Of a stretch of 64,000 bases of DNA, positions 33,827-40,525 are shown one piece after another. Each line of letters begins with the position of its first letter. Position 1 is the stretch's first letter. The notes under the pieces are model-generated. The model was not told the origin of the DNA. It saw only the letters and a list, made by a program, of their open reading frames with translations, and ran no database searches. The stretch is from Candidatus Methanarcanum sp. (GTDB lineage: Archaea; Thermoplasmatota; Thermoplasmata; Methanomassiliicoccales; Methanomethylophilaceae): the NCBI GenBank assembly GCA_045600635.1, contig JAZRYJ010000011.1:18440-82439 (forward strand), read 5' to 3'. A program made the position numbers and the translations under genes.

Positions 33827-33901
33827 GCATTCGTGATCTAGGGGCTAGGATTCAAGCCCTCCAAGCTTGTTGCCCGGGTTCGATTCCCGGCGGATGCACC
33901 A
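33827..33901 (+). tRNA. tRNA-Gly (TCC), CCA encoded, with non-canonical C33
   Basis: Acceptor GCATTCG/CGGATGC + A-CCA; D stem ATCT/GGAT; anticodon stem CAAGC/GCTTG with loop CCTCCAA; T arm CCGGG-TTCGATT-CCCGG; TTATATA box upstream. Confidence 0.92.
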
Positions 33902-33928: not shown

Positions 33929-34885
33929 TCATTGCTTGAAATCTTCCGGAACACCTGCGGATCTGCATCCCATATCGAAACATCCTATGGCTGCAACCGA
34001 ACCGATGACGCCGCCGTTCCCTTTCACAAGAGGATAGATCTTGATGTTATTCCTCTCAGCAATCTCTAAAGCATCTTCTGGTTTGAAAAGTATGCTCTTG
34101 CAATCCCATCCGAACTTCGACAACTCCTCTGGTATTTCAAGTCCTTGGTAGACCGTCATCACCGCATCATCAGAATATGTGTCCTTTATGATGAAATCCT
34201 TAGCATATTCAATCAATGAATCCACCTCAGATTCTCTGACCGCAAATGACACTGCAGTTGAACAGCAATTTGTAGTCTTCATCGGTGCCTTAGGATTGAG
34301 TTGGATGATCTTGTGCTCAAGGAATTTACCTATAGGGCAGTTCATACCGAGTTTCATACCGGTAACCCATGTCGCACCTTTCTCCTTGGTATCTGTATCG
34401 TCTATTCCGATGATCACGCGCACCATCTTCGGCGTTATGATATCAACACTGGATACGTGTCCTCCCCCGATCTTGAAATCATCAGGATATTCTGTATAGA
34501 TCACATCTTTACATGACGGAAGACATGCTCCAATACCTACAGTGGCACCTGCCATGGCACACCATGATATGCGCACCCTGTCTCCCTCGATAGACACTTT
34601 GTTGATACATCTTGCACCGAGACCTTCAGAAACAGCTCCGAAATGTGCTTCAGCCTCACCGATTCTTGCATCGATCTCCATCGTACCGTGTCTATCGACA
34701 ACATTGCTGACCAGTCCTTTCGAACGGCGCATATTGACTATGTCCCATTCAGAAGGGCCGACGGAAGTACATGACTCGATGATCTTGATCTTACCTGCTT
34801 TTTCATCGACCAAGGTTATGAACCTTTTACAGAATGTCTTCCCGTATTTCTTCTCGACTTGTTCCGGAGTAAGTGTCTGTACCAT
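33929..34885 (-). CDS. mmp11: Methanogenesis marker protein 11-like (TiaS-related IDDTD domain)
   Basis: IIGIDDTDTKEKGATW, HKIIQLNPKAPMKTTNCCSTA, N-terminal IESCTSVGPSEW. Confidence 0.8.
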   Translation of the reverse strand: MVQTLTPEQVEKKYGKTFCKRFITLVDEKAGKIKIIESCTSVGPSEWDIVNMRRSKGLVSNVVDRHGTMEIDARIGEAEAHFGAVSEGLGARCINKVSIEGDRVRISWCAMAGATVGIGACLPSCKDVIYTEYPDDFKIGGGHVSSVDIITPKMVRVIIGIDDTDTKEKGATWVTGMKLGMNCPIGKFLEHKIIQLNPKAPMKTTNCCSTAVSFAVRESEVDSLIEYAKDFIIKDTYSDDAVMTVYQGLEIPEELSKFGWDCKSILFKPEDALEIAERNNIKIYPLVKGNGGVIGSVAAIGCFDMGCRSAGVPEDFKQ

Positions 34886-34959
34886 GATACCTATCTCTTA
34901 AGAGCAACAGAGTAGTATGCAACGTTGTTTAATACTATTTCGATAAACCAACCAGCATT

Positions 34960-35979
34960 TCAAATGTCTTTGAACGGAACTATATCACAGCATGTACATC
35001 TGAGGCACATGGTTTTCATGTCAGTTCCCAGTGAGTATTTTTCAAGGATGTGCTTTTGAGACTTCGCAAGTCTGATGATCCTCTCAGATGATAGCGTCTC
35101 TGTGTCGCCCAACACTCTTCTGATGTTTTCCTTCACAATACCTGATGATTTCAACGGCCTCAGTCCGGGAATTACACCGATTGATGCCAATCTCTCCATG
35201 ATATTAATGACATCATCATCGGATTCCCCCAATCCTATTATGATGTTGGATGTTACATTCCCCTTTCCGAAAACTTCAACCGAATACTCCAACATTCTGA
35301 AGATGTTGTCATAATCCAACCCAGGACACGCCTTGTTGAACAATTCTTTGTTGACTGTTTCACAATTGATCTTGATCTCAGTTATTCCCGAAGCATAAAG
35401 TTGATCCACCTGTTCTTTGGATTCAACATACGGCTCTGCTCCGACAGGCATATCCGAAAATGCTTCTTTTACTGCTCTGGCACATTCGCATATCCTATCG
35501 ATGGTATTTTGAACTGATCCGATGACGCCGCTTGTGAATGCGACTGACTCGATAGCAACATATGAATCTCTTATCTTCTGAACTATAACGTCCTTGTCCT
35601 GTCCCTTGTATGTAGAATCACCTAACATCGGTGATGCACAATAGATACATTTGTAGATGCATCTCTGATCCAGATTGAAGAATGCCTGCTCAGGGCAATG
35701 ATAACCCACTGGCACTATTGTCACATTTTTGATGTACGGTTTACCTTTCCTCATTATCGCGAGTGATTCGCCGTCATTCTTCAATGAGAATTCCCTCTCG
35801 TTCCTCGATATCGCTTTTTTCACTCTCATTCCGGAGAAACCGAGAACGATGGATTCCGACCCTGCGCCCGGGCCTGCGGTCGATTTGGATATACGTACAG
35901 GTATAATTACATCATCTGGCACATATACTGCATCAGCAAGTATCAATTCCGCTTTCTTCGCAGCCAAATCAAAATCCAT
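34960..35979 (-). CDS. Radical SAM enzyme, biotin-synthase-related (COG2516/MSMEG_0568-like)
   Basis: CIYKCIYC, STAGPGAG, FGKGNVTSNIIIGLGE, C-terminal CLRCTCC; start MDFDL at 35979. Confidence 0.85.
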   Translation of the reverse strand: MDFDLAAKKAELILADAVYVPDDVIIPVRISKSTAGPGAGSESIVLGFSGMRVKKAISRNEREFSLKNDGESLAIMRKGKPYIKNVTIVPVGYHCPEQAFFNLDQRCIYKCIYCASPMLGDSTYKGQDKDVIVQKIRDSYVAIESVAFTSGVIGSVQNTIDRICECARAVKEAFSDMPVGAEPYVESKEQVDQLYASGITEIKINCETVNKELFNKACPGLDYDNIFRMLEYSVEVFGKGNVTSNIIIGLGESDDDVINIMERLASIGVIPGLRPLKSSGIVKENIRRVLGDTETLSSERIIRLAKSQKHILEKYSLGTDMKTMCLRCTCCDIVPFKDI

Positions 35980-36046
35980 GGAGTGTACTGTCCTTCTGCA
36001 ATAATAAAGGATGCGAACCTTAATAGTAGAATTGTGTTCAGCAATC

Positions 36047-36880
36047 ATGCACTGCAAGGATGTTTCCATCCGCGATGTCGATTTCTCTCTGACGAAAGAG
36101 AGCATCGATTCTCAGATGAAAGATTGGAATTCATACACCCGTACTGAATACATGGTGTTCCGCAATGATGACCGCTATGCTGTAGTGCATTTCCTATCAA
36201 AGGAAAAATCAACTTCATTGTTCAAAAAAGTAAATAAATTCAAGATCTTAGCACTGCCTGATGATATAATCTACATAGAGATCCCCGATCTGGATGTACT
36301 CAATGTCCCTGCATTGGCAAAGATACAACAGATGCATCCGAACAAAGGCATCGTTGTGAAAGGGATGTTCTCCCATGTCGTTTTCATAAAGGATCTTGAA
36401 CCGCTGTATCTTCATATTGTTGACAATATCCCGCCCAGTCCTGCGAAGCTCACTGTTCTTGTTCAGAAAGCATTGGATTCAGGATTCATCGATTATCCGA
36501 TAATCCCTGTAGAGCATATCATCGACATGGATGATAGTATCGGGAATGCTAATACTGAATCGATCATGTTCCCGTGTAAAGTCTCCGGATTGAAAGGCGG
36601 TAGGAGAACATACTATCTGGACGAGGCCCCTGACATCGAAGAGGATGTCACTCTCATCGGCTGTCACCTTTCCAAACGCATCTTCGAATCGATATACGGA
36701 AAAGAACCTGACTTCATCAATGTTTGTCCTGCTGATTTCACAGAAGGAAAAAGAAAATGCATTGTCAAATGTTGCAAGATCAAGAATGATCATGTCATCA
36801 ATGATGAGATCGCACAGGTCCCTTGGGGTGCTACTGTCCCTGAGGTCGTAGATGCTATAAACGACCTCTTCAAAGATTGA
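36047..36880 (+). CDS. Conserved-looking Cys-rich hypothetical protein
   Basis: FPCKVSG, LIGCHLS, NVCP, KCIVKCC, QVPWGA; ATG 36047 preferred. Confidence 0.75.
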   Translation: MHCKDVSIRDVDFSLTKESIDSQMKDWNSYTRTEYMVFRNDDRYAVVHFLSKEKSTSLFKKVNKFKILALPDDIIYIEIPDLDVLNVPALAKIQQMHPNKGIVVKGMFSHVVFIKDLEPLYLHIVDNIPPSPAKLTVLVQKALDSGFIDYPIIPVEHIIDMDDSIGNANTESIMFPCKVSGLKGGRRTYYLDEAPDIEEDVTLIGCHLSKRIFESIYGKEPDFINVCPADFTEGKRKCIVKCCKIKNDHVINDEIAQVPWGATVPEVVDAINDLFKD

Positions 36881-36892
36881 AAGAAACCATGA

Positions 36893-38326
36893 TCAATCGT
36901 GATGATGATGCTCATGCTTTGCTGTATGAACATTCTTCTTTCCGATCACAATGTAGTAATCGCCGTCATCACGTGAGAATATCACTTCAAGACCGTTAAT
37001 ATGGAAGAATTCCGACATCACATCAACGTCCGGAAGATAATCTGCACAGATCTCGACCCCTCCTGTTTCATGCACGTTGTTGATGTGTTCTTTGGATGAT
37101 GAATGCGCTATTGTGAGTGTGCCTCCCATCTTCAATGCATGTGAGAGGATGTGTATCGCTTCCACTGGGTCCGGGAAATGAGGGAAACAAGAATAACAGA
37201 CGATTCTGTCATACCTCTCGTTCTCTTTCATATCATAGATGTCGATCACTTTGTATTCCAGCATATCAGACTCAGGATTCTTGGATCTGGCCACTTCAAT
37301 CATGTTCTCTGAATAATCGACTGCTGTTATGTGTCCGGCCTTCATCCTTGATAGATATGGGTTGATCATCACACCTGTGCCGGTGCCGACGTCTAATATC
37401 TCTGAATCATCCTTGATATCCAACAGATCGACGATGTACTCCACTTTCTTCATATCATGAATGCTCATACCATCCCATTTATCAGCCCTGTCATTGAAGA
37501 ATTCCTTCTGTTTCGGATTCTTCTTCCTCTTTGACAGGAAATCGCTGGCCTTCTTCGAGATCATATGATGCATCTCATTCGGAACTATCACTTTATATCC
37601 GTTCACTTCTCCGACGGAAACTTCGATGCCGTATACCTCACGTATATTCTCAGGCGTTATCACTTCGCTTCCTCCGGATGCGAATATCTTACCATCTTTC
37701 ATCAGGATGAAACGATTGGAAAATCTCAATGCGAGATTCAGATCGTGATTGGTCATCACCGCACACATTCCGTTATTACGGACGATGTGTGCCAGCTTAT
37801 GCAGTACCTCATACTGGTTCTTAATGTCGAGATTGCTGGTTGGTTCATCGAGGAGCAGTACTTTAGGCTGCTGTACGATCGCCCTTGCTATCTGCACCAG
37901 CTGATACTCTCCGCCTGATACCTCATTCACCTTCTTATCTGAAATCGAAGAGATGCCCAGTGTCTCAATGACTCTGGAGACCAATTTGATATCCTTGTCC
38001 GTCACATCTACCGTGATGTATGGTTTCCTTCCTATCAGCACAGATTCAAAAACCGTACTTCCGGATACCTGTGAACTCTGAGGCACATATCCGATCTTCT
38101 TTGCGATTTCCGTTCTCTTCATAGAGAGTATGTCATCATTTTCAACTAAGACCGTACCAGAAACAGGTGTGTGGATATTGTTGATGCACTTCAGAAGTGT
38201 CGTCTTTCCTACACCGTTCGGACCCAGGATAGATACCACATCGCCCTCGGATGCTTCGAATCCCACATCTGATAATGTATTCTCAGAATCATAACTGAAT
38301 TGAATGTCAGCAATCTTCAGTATCAT
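36893..38326 (-). CDS. FecE/BtuD-type ABC ATPase fused to a class I SAM methyltransferase, with His-rich tail
   Basis: GPNGVGKT, VSGGE, LLLDEPT, H-loop; then ILDVGTGTG, VDYSENMI, YSCFPHF; ends HTAKHEHHHHD; ATGA overlap with the permease. Confidence 0.9.
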   Translation of the reverse strand: MILKIADIQFSYDSENTLSDVGFEASEGDVVSILGPNGVGKTTLLKCINNIHTPVSGTVLVENDDILSMKRTEIAKKIGYVPQSSQVSGSTVFESVLIGRKPYITVDVTDKDIKLVSRVIETLGISSISDKKVNEVSGGEYQLVQIARAIVQQPKVLLLDEPTSNLDIKNQYEVLHKLAHIVRNNGMCAVMTNHDLNLALRFSNRFILMKDGKIFASGGSEVITPENIREVYGIEVSVGEVNGYKVIVPNEMHHMISKKASDFLSKRKKNPKQKEFFNDRADKWDGMSIHDMKKVEYIVDLLDIKDDSEILDVGTGTGVMINPYLSRMKAGHITAVDYSENMIEVARSKNPESDMLEYKVIDIYDMKENERYDRIVCYSCFPHFPDPVEAIHILSHALKMGGTLTIAHSSSKEHINNVHETGGVEICADYLPDVDVMSEFFHINGLEVIFSRDDGDYYIVIGKKNVHTAKHEHHHHD

Positions 38327-39441
38327 TCTCTGTACCTCCTTATCAGGACATATATGAATGCAGGTCCGCCCAATATGGATGTCAGAAGGCCGATAGGTAG
38401 CATGACTGGATAGCATATGTTGATAGAAACGATGTTGGCTATCATAAGCAACAGCCCTCCGAATAACACGGAAATCGGTATCAGGTACCTGTGATCATTA
38501 CCTACGACCATACGTGCGATGTGCGGACCAAGCAATCCTACGAATGCGATGACTCCGAATCTGCAGACGATCAATGCCGCCAATACAGACGATATGATGA
38601 GTCCGATATTCATGAATCCTTTCGTATCAACGCCCAACCCCTTTGCGACATCCTCTCCGGCTTCCATTGCATTCATCGTCCAACGGTTGCAATAGAAGAA
38701 AATGAAAGCTATGACGAATCCTATTGCAATTGCCAGATCCCATGTCCAATCCGCATTGGCAACGGATCCGAACATCCACGACACAATCCTGCTGAGTTGT
38801 GACGGATCAGCGATGTATTGCATCAGTGTTATGCCTGCAGAGAATATCGCGCTGACCGCTATCCCCGACAGCACCATTGTTTCGGCCGAAATGTTGGTGA
38901 CTTTGGTCAGCAGTATTATCAGCCCTGTGGCCAGCAATGCGAATACAAATGCGAGTATAGGGGTTATCGCCTGTGAAAGAACCGTTCCGATGAAAAGATT
39001 CTCGATGAATATCGTGGATAACGCAGCACCGAAGGCTGCAGCATTGGACAACCCCAATGTGAACGGTGATGCCAATGGATTCTTCAGAATGCATTGCATG
39101 ACGGTTCCTGAAAGTGACAACGCAGCGCCTGTGATCAAGGCTGCGACCATTATCGGGAGATCCACGTTCCAGACGAATTTACCTACCATGGTGGAAAGAT
39201 CGTGTGTAAAGAATGCTGCCAATGCTCCGATCACATCGAAACGGATATTGTTCACAATGATAGTGACAAAGATCATTATCACCACAGCGATTATCGAACC
39301 TATGATCCACCTTTTCTTCTTCTGAACAGATGCTCTGTATGATGTCTCCGTCACAGATGTCTCTTCGTCCAGATTGTCATAGATCTTGTAATCTCTCGTC
39401 TTCTCACCAATCCAACCATCCAGTACCGTGTGATTGATCAC
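38323..39441 (-). CDS. FecCD/BtuC-type ABC permease
   Basis: GAALSLSG..MQ..LKNPLASPFTLG, G.IAFVGL..PHIAR, PIGLLTS..GGP. Confidence 0.95.
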   Translation of the reverse strand: MINHTVLDGWIGEKTRDYKIYDNLDEETSVTETSYRASVQKKKRWIIGSIIAVVIMIFVTIIVNNIRFDVIGALAAFFTHDLSTMVGKFVWNVDLPIMVAALITGAALSLSGTVMQCILKNPLASPFTLGLSNAAAFGAALSTIFIENLFIGTVLSQAITPILAFVFALLATGLIILLTKVTNISAETMVLSGIAVSAIFSAGITLMQYIADPSQLSRIVSWMFGSVANADWTWDLAIAIGFVIAFIFFYCNRWTMNAMEAGEDVAKGLGVDTKGFMNIGLIISSVLAALIVCRFGVIAFVGLLGPHIARMVVGNDHRYLIPISVLFGGLLLMIANIVSINICYPVMLPIGLLTSILGGPAFIYVLIRRYRE

Positions 39442-40525
39442 GAATGATGTCGTCGACAGTCATGTCTGTATTGGGGTAGAACAGTTCCAACACTTCATCC
39501 ATTTTATCATCAATATCATAATCGAAAATATCTGGATCCAAAACTGAACCGATGAAATACGCATTCATCAATTCGGACTCCCAATTGGTACCATAGTATT
39601 TCCAGATGAATAATGAGAATATCCTTTCATCAGCAACACTGTTGTTTTTGACGGCAGAAGTCTCATTCAGCCCTTTGTTCCTGTCATCATTAAATTGTTC
39701 ATGCGACTGTTCATACGTCATCGCATCAATGAAAATGTACTCCGTATTACTTGATGACACTGCGGTAATGTTGGTCAAATACGGATTTCCACCCATTTTT
39801 TCTTCCATCACATTCTCTAACCCGACCAACTCGAATGGATGATAGTTTCCTGTGGTCATATAGAAGCCGCCGTTCATCATATAGAACATGCCGCCGATGT
39901 ATGCAGAATGATTGCCTGTCACTTTTACTGACATCTCTTTAAGTTCATTCTGCATCACATTTATGCCGTTCAGAAGTTCGTCAGCACGTTCCTTCCTATT
40001 GAGGACGTCCCCGATGATCCTGATGTTCTTCTCGAACATCTTACTGCCGAGGTCGACATTGCCTTCCGCATTTACGGCCACTACAGGGATTCCTGTCACA
40101 GTCTGCAATGTATTAAGAGTATCGATCGATTCCTTGGAAGTGATTATCACCTGCGGATCGACACTCATGATCTCTCTGTAACTGGTCTCGTCTCCGATAC
40201 ATTGTATCTTCTTGATCTCCGGATGTATGATGCGGTATGTGGCACATGCATATTTATCAGAATGCAAAATGTCCGCGTCCTTACTGTCAATACCGACAAT
40301 CTTGTCAACAGCATCAAAATATGCCATCAATCTGACAGAACCAGCTGAAAGACACACGACTCTGCTGATGTCACCGGGTATCATCACATGTCTGTTACGT
40401 GCATCGACTATCTCGACATCTCCGGATGTATTGTTGCCGCTTACGGGTATAAAAATGACTATCGCTGCTGCTATAACCAATACTGCTGCGATGACTGCAA
40501 TCGTCTTTTTTGTAGCACCATCCAT
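39404..40525 (-). CDS. Class III (iron-chelate/cobalamin) ABC substrate-binding protein
   Basis: N-terminal anchor, DARNRHVMIP.DISRVVCL, E.IMSVDPQVII. Confidence 0.9.
   Translation of the reverse strand: MDGATKKTIAVIAAVLVIAAAIVIFIPVSGNNTSGDVEIVDARNRHVMIPGDISRVVCLSAGSVRLMAYFDAVDKIVGIDSKDADILHSDKYACATYRIIHPEIKKIQCIGDETSYREIMSVDPQVIITSKESIDTLNTLQTVTGIPVVAVNAEGNVDLGSKMFEKNIRIIGDVLNRKERADELLNGINVMQNELKEMSVKVTGNHSAYIGGMFYMMNGGFYMTTGNYHPFELVGLENVMEEKMGGNPYLTNITAVSSSNTEYIFIDAMTYEQSHEQFNDDRNKGLNETSAVKNNSVADERIFSLFIWKYYGTNWESELMNAYFIGSVLDPDIFDYDIDDKMDEVLELFYPNTDMTVDDIIRDQSHGTGWLDW

Follow-up and report, generated by a model that had tools for sequence, protein, structure and literature searches.

We analysed a stretch of 64,000 nucleotides (hereafter the window) from contig JAZRYJ010000011.1 of a gut methanogen, Candidatus Methanarcanum sp. 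(assembly GCA_045600635.1), whose genome (1.53 Mb in 88 contigs, labelled G000) belongs to the Methanomethylophilaceae of the order Methanomassiliicoccales. Between positions 33,929 and 36,880 of the window, three intact open reading frames (ORFs) code for an Mmp11-like protein, a radical S-adenosylmethionine (SAM) enzyme and a cysteine-rich protein of the XcbA family (Table 1). The initial annotation, made from the letters of the window, had proposed these genes as a candidate three-component Fe-S pathway, and the genes, both spacers and the cysteine motifs that it described were all found again when the sequence was read. The radical SAM ORF spans 34960-36105 on the minus strand, and its start was set to M43, at 35979, according to gene call P0001 and the N-termini of homologues. 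Likewise, the XcbA-like ORF begins at 36011, and its start was set to the conserved MHCKDV at 36047 (P0121 and homologue N-termini). In the spacer that runs from the radical SAM stop to the start of Mmp11, the sequence shows an A/T-rich stretch that resembles a TATA box, ATAGTATTAAA, and no T-run that would obviously serve as terminator; in the related contigs L138 and L141 this spacer measures ~65 nt.

Table 1. Genes and spacers of the Mmp11/radical SAM/XcbA locus, in window positions.
Feature	Position	Strand	Description
Mmp11-like	33929-34885	-	318 aa; N-terminal ~150 aa unannotated, followed by TiaS-type TCKD/FLD domain with IGIDDTDT motif
Spacer, radical SAM stop to Mmp11 start	34886-34959	-	74 nt; sequence read directly
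Radical SAM	34960-35979	-	339 aa; CX3CX2C, LipA/BioB/HydE-like barrel, C-terminal Cys tail
Divergent spacer	35980-36046	.	67 nt; two A/T-rich TATA-like boxes, each facing one gene
XcbA-family / DUF7714 protein	36047-36880	+	277 aa; five family-invariant Cys

The cysteine-rich protein scores 209.1 bits against NF052538 over its full length (cutoff 150) and 198.4 bits against PF24830 (DUF7714; cutoff 25), which makes it a member of the XcbA family. It had first been likened to an actinobacterial family found near glutamate-synthase-like and methylamine genes, an identification that gives way to XcbA/DUF7714; actinobacterial plasmids do carry some XcbA homologues, but in alkene oxidisers that use coenzyme M (CoM). 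A tblastn search of plasmids led to pXAUT01 of Xanthobacter autotrophicus Py2 and to plasmids of other CoM-using alkene oxidisers. The match on pXAUT01 is Xaut_5070 (XcbA), directly upstream of phosphosulfolactate synthase and two lyases, with 30% identity over 98% coverage (E = 1e-44). Five cysteines (C177, C206, C227, C242 and C243) are invariant between archaeal and bacterial members (alignment A5) and account for five of the at least six in the C-terminal half of the protein, a number that agrees with the initial annotation; in addition, an N-terminal HC is near-invariant. XcbA is a [2Fe-2S] sulfoethanethioaldehyde reductase with a potential of −372 mV, which catalyses the final step of bacterial CoM biosynthesis (PMC9457059), and the window protein is likewise predicted to be a [2Fe-2S] redox protein. 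Its AlphaFold2 (AF2) model has a predicted local distance difference test (pLDDT) score of 94 and gave no significant fold match in the PDB (best E = 1.6e-3, template modelling (TM) score 0.15). In-frame TGA codons flagged in XcbA of genus g6 and G048 ("1 TGA inside") were considered as selenocysteine and rejected, the TGA being the natural stop with read-through by the hidden Markov model.

The archaeal protein differs from that of Xanthobacter in its host and in its surroundings. The Xanthobacter XcbA has aspartase/fumarase-type and pyridoxal phosphate (PLP) enzymes as partners, whereas the archaeal partners are the radical SAM enzyme and a cysteine operon: the neighbours are the radical SAM gene and an ATP-binding cassette (ABC) importer in the window, and cysK-cysE-cysS or a short homocitrate synthase (HCS)-like gene in relatives. 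The xcbB-E association (comA, two aspartase/fumarase-type lyases and a PLP enzyme) was not found beside the window gene. Unlike its bacterial counterpart, archaeal XcbA also occurs in genomes without a known CoM pathway or without mcrA. Our literature search found no papers on archaeal XcbA homologues.

The radical SAM enzyme matches PF04055 with 49.7 bits, and C107, C111 and C114 of its CX3CX2C motif (CIYKCIYC) are invariant. The family also keeps invariant an S-x-STAGPGAG motif in the unannotated N-terminal beta domain, C218, and a TMCxxCxCCD(I/L)VPF tail (alignments A1 and A2); the C-terminal end of the window protein is MCLRCTCCDIVPFKDI. In the profile search it passed no NCBIfam family cutoff, the best matches being a generic "variant rSAM" domain, MSMEG_0568, LipS2, BioB and LipA, while its AF2 model (pLDDT 91.2) finds its best PDB folds in LipA/LIAS, ThiH, BioB and HydE (TM ~0.5), with 5fep and 5few among the matches. 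This bears out the early description of an orphan enzyme of the sulfur-inserting type with additional conserved cysteines. The likeness to MSMEG_0568 proposed in the initial annotation holds: hhalign aligns the two with 98% probability over ~285 columns, nearly the whole length, but the score against TIGR04043 is 67.8 bits for a cutoff of 303.7. The window family is sister to MSMEG_0568, as a remote homologue, and belongs to no curated family. Common to both are a BioB-like core, a cluster of cysteines at the C-terminus and an AGP motif in the N-terminal domain, but the C-terminal motif is CxxCxxC in MSMEG_0568 and CxxCxCC here, and STAGPGAG is invariant in the window family. Nit1C-type neighbours (nitrilase, GNAT, AIR-synthase-like) were found neither in the window nor at 80 related radical SAM loci. 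The family is small: in 1.8 billion proteins it has 91 representatives at E<1e-30, and every named member that was looked up belongs to the Thermoplasmatota, among them the MBG-D single cell SCGC AB-539-N05; the loci returned by the locus search are from Methanomassiliicoccales only. The N-terminal domains of the radical SAM enzyme and of Mmp11 have no Pfam match even at E = 10.

As a side observation, a Methylocystis iwaonis plasmid (NZ_CP143315, 188701-203534; L107) carries comA-xcbA-xcbD-xcbE-xcbC divergently beside a Nit1C-type cluster with an MSMEG_0568 radical SAM, a second juxtaposition of XcbA with a radical SAM enzyme, in a bacterium and with the sister family of the window enzyme.

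The nearest solved folds and sequence relatives, LipA, LipS1/LipS2 and BioB, are sulfur-inserting radical SAM enzymes with an auxiliary cluster. The window enzyme could accordingly be a divergent lipoyl- or biotin-synthase-type protein, a LipS2 analogue, with the XcbA-like [2Fe-2S] protein as electron donor or repair factor for a sacrificial cluster; the potential of XcbA would suit the reduction of a radical SAM cluster (PMC9457059), and LipS1-like genes are present in several Methanomassiliicoccales genomes (G006, G023, G024 and G057) and in most mcrA-less genomes that carry the window-type radical SAM. We judge this quite improbable. The enzyme stays far under all the family cutoffs, with 64 bits against LipS2 (NF053743; cutoff 270), and both its additional N-terminal domain with STAGPGAG and its CxxCxCC tail are foreign to LipS2. 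Several genomes that hold this radical SAM (G083, G089, G120, G126 and G206) have separate LipS2-like genes close to the cutoff (187-240 bits), some of them co-located with LipS1-like genes. In contrast to the lipoyl synthases, the window enzyme is partnered by cysS and XcbA and not by lipoylation genes, and the profile search found no LipS1 in the window genome or in the same-genus comparison genome, Candidatus Methanarcanum hacksteinii (G042).

The third protein scores 221.6 bits against TIGR03280, below the cutoff of 255.8, with profile positions 3-284 of 292 covered; none of 81 Methanomassiliicoccales genomes passes this cutoff. It matches PF22641 and PF08489, its sequence matches in the PDB are TiaS (3amt/4rvz) and 3u02, and IGIDDTD is conserved in the alignment to both, so that the assignment to Mmp11 with a TiaS-like domain stands. 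Orthologues in the Methanomethylophilaceae are 62-74% identical. The protein is a divergent Mmp11 orthologue with an intact TiaS-type DDTD motif. Its likeness to TiaS, the tRNA-Ile2 agmatidine synthetase, lies in the TCKD kinase-type domain with DDTD, and Mmp11 is without the tRNA-binding domains of TiaS. A literature search found no papers on Mmp11 function.

Across the order (the same 81 genomes), XcbA is present in 77 genomes (in 76 above the family cutoff), the radical SAM gene in 78 and Mmp11 in 80. In ~40 of the 59 genomes outside the Methanomethylophilaceae, XcbA and the radical SAM gene stand divergently on a single contig, 3.3-19 kb apart; in the others they are on separate contigs of fragmented assemblies, and they are never distant on one contig. 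The genes that separate them are cysK, cysE and cysS, and the ancestral layout can be written as pyrD-pyrK / short HCS- or isopropylmalate synthase (IPMS)-like <- (small tetratricopeptide-repeat protein) <- XcbA <> cysK-cysE-cysS-radical SAM-mntR/dtxR-feoB / gltX. In 62 of 80 further loci cysS lies directly upstream of the radical SAM gene, usually with an overlap of ~13-16 nt, and in most Methanomassiliicoccales the radical SAM gene is translationally coupled to cysS. The Methanomethylophilaceae have a scattered cluster, but XcbA and the radical SAM gene became direct neighbours twice independently, divergent in the clade of the window and tandem in G022. Neither gene is present in G061, a closed genome, or in G025, both of which retain Mmp11 and mcrA, and the two genes co-occur within the order (Fisher p = 0.005). 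Taken together, this makes the XcbA-like protein and the radical SAM enzyme an evolutionarily coupled, cysteine-linked pair.

Two candidates were rejected. An apparent fusion of cysteinyl-tRNA synthetase and the radical SAM enzyme, in frames of 820-888 aa, is due to scaffold Ns (G060) and to spurious upstream frames (G012, G053), and the short HCS-like gene is no obligate partner, its orthologue being absent from all Methanomethylophilaceae and from genus g15.

Mmp11 has a different history. It is linked to the radical SAM gene or XcbA in none of the 80 other genomes of the order, G042 included, and lies within 8 kb of the radical SAM gene in none of the 80 further radical SAM loci. Its usual context is folD-kptA-(DUF2797)-Mmp11-uppS-B12 radical SAM (TIGR04190, Ta0216-type), and uppS, a cis-prenyltransferase gene, adjoins it in the mcrA-less family f29 too (loci L022-L025, L139 and L136). 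The window arrangement is derived, because kptA and uppS are immediate neighbours elsewhere in the window genome (C70), and cysK-cysE (C15), cysS (C36) and mntR-feoB-gltX occupy three further contigs. It is not an assembly accident, since two to three related metagenomic contigs show it again: the order in Logan contig L138 is XcbA <> radical SAM -> Mmp11 (70/64/73% identity), with a downstream gene different from that in the window, and L141 and L142 share radical SAM -> Mmp11 (63/74% identity). Next in closeness is the Mmp11 of L139 (67% identity), which is still at the ancestral site. Mmp11 joined the XcbA-radical SAM pair only recently, and only in the small clade of the window: cysK-cysE-cysS were relocated, which left XcbA and the radical SAM gene back to back, and Mmp11 moved from its ancestral position in kptA-Mmp11-uppS to immediately downstream of the radical SAM gene. 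The window locus is in this sense a recently compacted form of an older, conserved association.

These rearrangements raise the question of chance. The genes could have unrelated functions, with passive synteny around the cysteine operon and a window order that is a by-product of scrambling in a reduced, host-associated lineage. Gene order in the Methanomethylophilaceae is indeed heavily scrambled, XcbA and the radical SAM gene are unlinked in 19 of the 21 members with both, the ancestral cluster of the window genome is spread over at least 4 contigs, and a tRNA gene abuts Mmp11. The independent origins of the adjacency, the co-loss in two genomes, the survival of the trio through further rearrangement in relatives and the co-occurrence of all three genes outside the order (see below) speak against this explanation, which we consider unlikely.

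The distribution beyond the order was followed in a phylum-wide sample of 201 genomes. Outside the Methanomassiliicoccales, XcbA is present in 12 genomes, the radical SAM gene in ~20 and an Mmp11 homologue in 12 (four above the TIGR03280 cutoff). XcbA is accompanied by the radical SAM gene in 11 of its 12 genomes, and Mmp11 by the radical SAM gene in 11 of 12 and by XcbA in 9 of 12; eight genomes have all three. At the family level, without correction for deeper phylogeny, Fisher tests give p ~1e-3 for XcbA with radical SAM, 1e-3 for Mmp11 with radical SAM and 9e-3 for Mmp11 with XcbA. None of the 21 outside-order genomes that carry these genes has mcrA, and the XcbA-radical SAM pair occurs in at least 11 genomes without it. 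As Mmp11 homologues are found in 12 mcrA-less Thermoplasmatota genomes, Mmp11 is not strictly a marker of methanogenesis. The four high-scoring Mmp11 contigs come from metagenome-assembled genomes with 2-7% contamination, and the result is robust to this because eight genomes of families f29 and f32 carry Mmp11.

In two mcrA-less families, f45 and f46, Mmp11 adjoins LipS1-family radical SAM enzymes that score above the cutoff (L129, L130 and L132, in G162, G206 and G184). In f46 a short homocitrate/isopropylmalate-synthase-like gene lies upstream, adjacent to Mmp11; it shares 52-55% identity with the gene beside XcbA in Methanomassiliicoccales, and an orthologue with 44-49% identity adjoins the window-type radical SAM gene in G092. 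Together, these connections raise the odds that Mmp11, sulfur-type radical SAM enzymes and XcbA belong to one functional network. Against a single network stand the lack of the short HCS-like gene in the Methanomethylophilaceae, the lack of LipS1 in the window genome and the more conserved pairing of Mmp11 with uppS. The Mmp11 homologues of mcrA-less Thermoplasmatota that stand beside LipS1-family radical SAM enzymes pass the TIGR03280 cutoff; further sites related to Mmp11/LipS1 were seen in G200:C94 and G098:C3:206505-208218, and several genomes have tandem LipS1-like pairs.

The idea of a single Fe-S-dependent pathway that builds or modifies a cofactor and needs all three proteins, Mmp11, the radical SAM enzyme and the XcbA-like protein, can now be weighed. 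Two to three related species retain the trio in spite of differing flanks, the joint occurrences outside the order fit such a pathway, and so do the LipS1-type neighbours of Mmp11 in f45 and f46 and the short HCS-like gene that leads from f46 to XcbA and the radical SAM enzyme. The absence of linkage in the 80 loci and 80 other genomes points the other way, as do the conserved neighbours of Mmp11 (kptA, the DUF2797 protein, uppS and the TIGR04190 B12-radical SAM), the persistence of Mmp11 in G061 and G025 after both other genes were lost, and the presence of XcbA and radical SAM without Mmp11 in families f15 and f38. Moreover, Mmp11 is also found in M. jannaschii and M. acetivorans, whereas the radical SAM members that were looked up are all from Thermoplasmatota. 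We regard obligate dependence of the three as possible, though doubtful. What the initial annotation had proposed therefore stands for the radical SAM-XcbA pair, linked throughout the order and co-occurring, and falls short for Mmp11, unlinked outside the small clade of the window. Unlinked genes together with discordant profiles had been named as grounds against the proposal; of these, only the physical separation of Mmp11 was found, the phyletic profiles of the three genes being concordant across the phylum.

The known activity of XcbA makes CoM metabolism the obvious context to consider. True MMP16/ComF is present in 24 of the 81 genomes and ComD in 22, always co-located; MMP16 and ComDE are absent from the window genome and from G042 in the 81-genome profile search. 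The window genome is predicted to be a CoM auxotroph, because it is without ComD and its only candidate for MMP16 is a COG1900 paralogue (C44:1870-2775, 148 bits). MMP16/ComF and L-ASST (COG1900) are archaeal aldehyde-to-thiol sulfurtransferases (PMC12068725; the supplementary presence/absence table of that paper has no Methanomassiliicoccales rows as text). They offer a possible functional analogy, in that a thiol is installed on a small metabolite in methanogens, while fold and family are unrelated. Since the genome is without ComDE and MMP16, XcbA is present regardless of these genes and the pair extends to mcrA-less Thermoplasmatota, the locus is not part of the canonical archaeal CoM pathway, and de novo synthesis of CoM from sulfopyruvate is not the role of XcbA here.

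A different role in CoM metabolism could be imagined, in which MMP16-less Methanomassiliicoccales use the XcbA-like protein as their missing terminal CoM synthase or for CoM salvage: it would reduce sulfoethanethioaldehyde formed from sulfoacetaldehyde and cysteine, with the radical SAM enzyme opening the cysteine adduct. The only characterised XcbA member performs exactly that reduction (PMC9457059), 57 of the 81 genomes are without true MMP16 while 76 have XcbA above the cutoff, the link to cysteine genes fits cysteine as sulfur donor, and HydE-like radical SAM enzymes, with 5fep and 5few among the fold matches, act on thiazolidines and cysteine sulfur. This role is nevertheless rather improbable. 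The presence of XcbA is independent of ComDE and MMP16 (G025 has both of these but no XcbA), no known pathway of the window genome leads to sulfoacetaldehyde, comA and xcbB-E are missing from the neighbourhood, and the pair is found where mcrA is not.

In our view the XcbA-radical SAM pair has about an even chance of being a cysteine-linked sulfur/thiol module, and Mmp11 has a distinctly smaller chance of belonging to it. The radical SAM enzyme would hold the SAM cluster and a second cluster on the CxxCxCC tail, possibly with C218, and its C-S bond chemistry would act on cysteine, or on an adduct of cysteine with a small metabolite. A two-electron reduction (C=S or S-S to thiol) would then come from the XcbA-like protein, as it does from XcbA for sulfoethanethioaldehyde. 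Mmp11 might act as a TiaS-type, ATP-dependent carbonyl activator and amine ligase, and may share the metabolite as a late, non-obligate partner. This chemistry is supported by the nearest folds of the radical SAM enzyme, LipA, BioB and HydE, all of which handle sulfur or cysteine.

Several points weigh against such a module. Proximity within one order could be inherited synteny and not selection, and the overlap with cysS could reflect operon economy and not a shared function. Outside the Methanomassiliicoccales, XcbA and the radical SAM gene are not physically linked, the neighbours of the radical SAM gene are uninformative (Topo VI, TFIIB, a GTPase), and the Fisher values carry the phylogenetic limit given above. 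The radical SAM gene is also more widespread than XcbA, and nine genomes have it without XcbA, so that it is not strictly dependent on XcbA. Finally, a role of XcbA as a dedicated electron donor or cluster-repair factor is just as plausible as one as a substrate reductase.

A more specific extension of the module brings in coenzyme B (CoB). Mmp11, LipA/BioB-type radical SAM enzymes (of the window family or LipS1-like), an XcbA-type reductase and the short HCS-like enzyme may form an undescribed Thermoplasmatota pathway to a CoB-type mercapto-acyl amide thiol cofactor, also in archaea without methyl-coenzyme M reductase, with Mmp11 as the missing ATP-dependent ligase/kinase (e.g. a 7-mercaptoheptanoate:threonine ligase); we put this forward as a long shot. 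As a separate observation, the window genus has a single IPMS-family gene, C62:26586-27740, CimA-like, of ~517 aa and with a regulatory domain, and no short HCS/AksA-type gene was found in the window genome or in G042, which raises the question of CoB synthesis in this genus. In many genomes, among them several of f3, f4 and f7 (e.g. G057:C1:1187836-1205127), a second short HCS-like paralogue (frames of ~390-445 aa) lies at a fixed distance of 16-18 kb from a paralogue of COG1900 (L-ASST-like); this neighbourhood may be methionine- or CoB-related.

On the flanks of the trio, a tRNA-Gly(UCC) gene at 33827-33901 (+) lies convergent to the 3' end of Mmp11, with 27 nt between it and the Mmp11 stop, and is one edge of the relocated block. 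At the other end, a metal-chelate-type ABC importer (36893-40525, minus strand) is convergent to the XcbA-like gene; its ATPase forms a fusion protein (36893-38416) with a class I SAM methyltransferase that has a His-rich tail, and this gene is directly adjacent, as initially annotated. Because the importer is found neither in L138 nor in the ancestral layouts, it is probably unrelated to the trio.

XcbA has been presented as exclusive to the CoM pathway of bacteria and as an instance of convergent evolution. Almost all Methanomassiliicoccales have a full-length homologue, tied to a radical SAM enzyme and a cysteine operon, and this shows what is in all likelihood an older or broader role of the family in archaeal sulfur chemistry, and most of the XcbA-bearing genomes of this order are without ComDE and MMP16. 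Mmp11 is among the last "methanogenesis markers" without an assigned function, and its occurrence in mcrA-less Thermoplasmatota, and beside LipA/BioB-type radical SAM enzymes in two independent contexts, provides testable handles on it. Should the pair produce or salvage a thiol cofactor, that would bear on the CoM auxotrophy predicted for Methanomassiliicoccales of the gut and rumen, and thereby on methane-mitigation strategies aimed at CoM metabolism.

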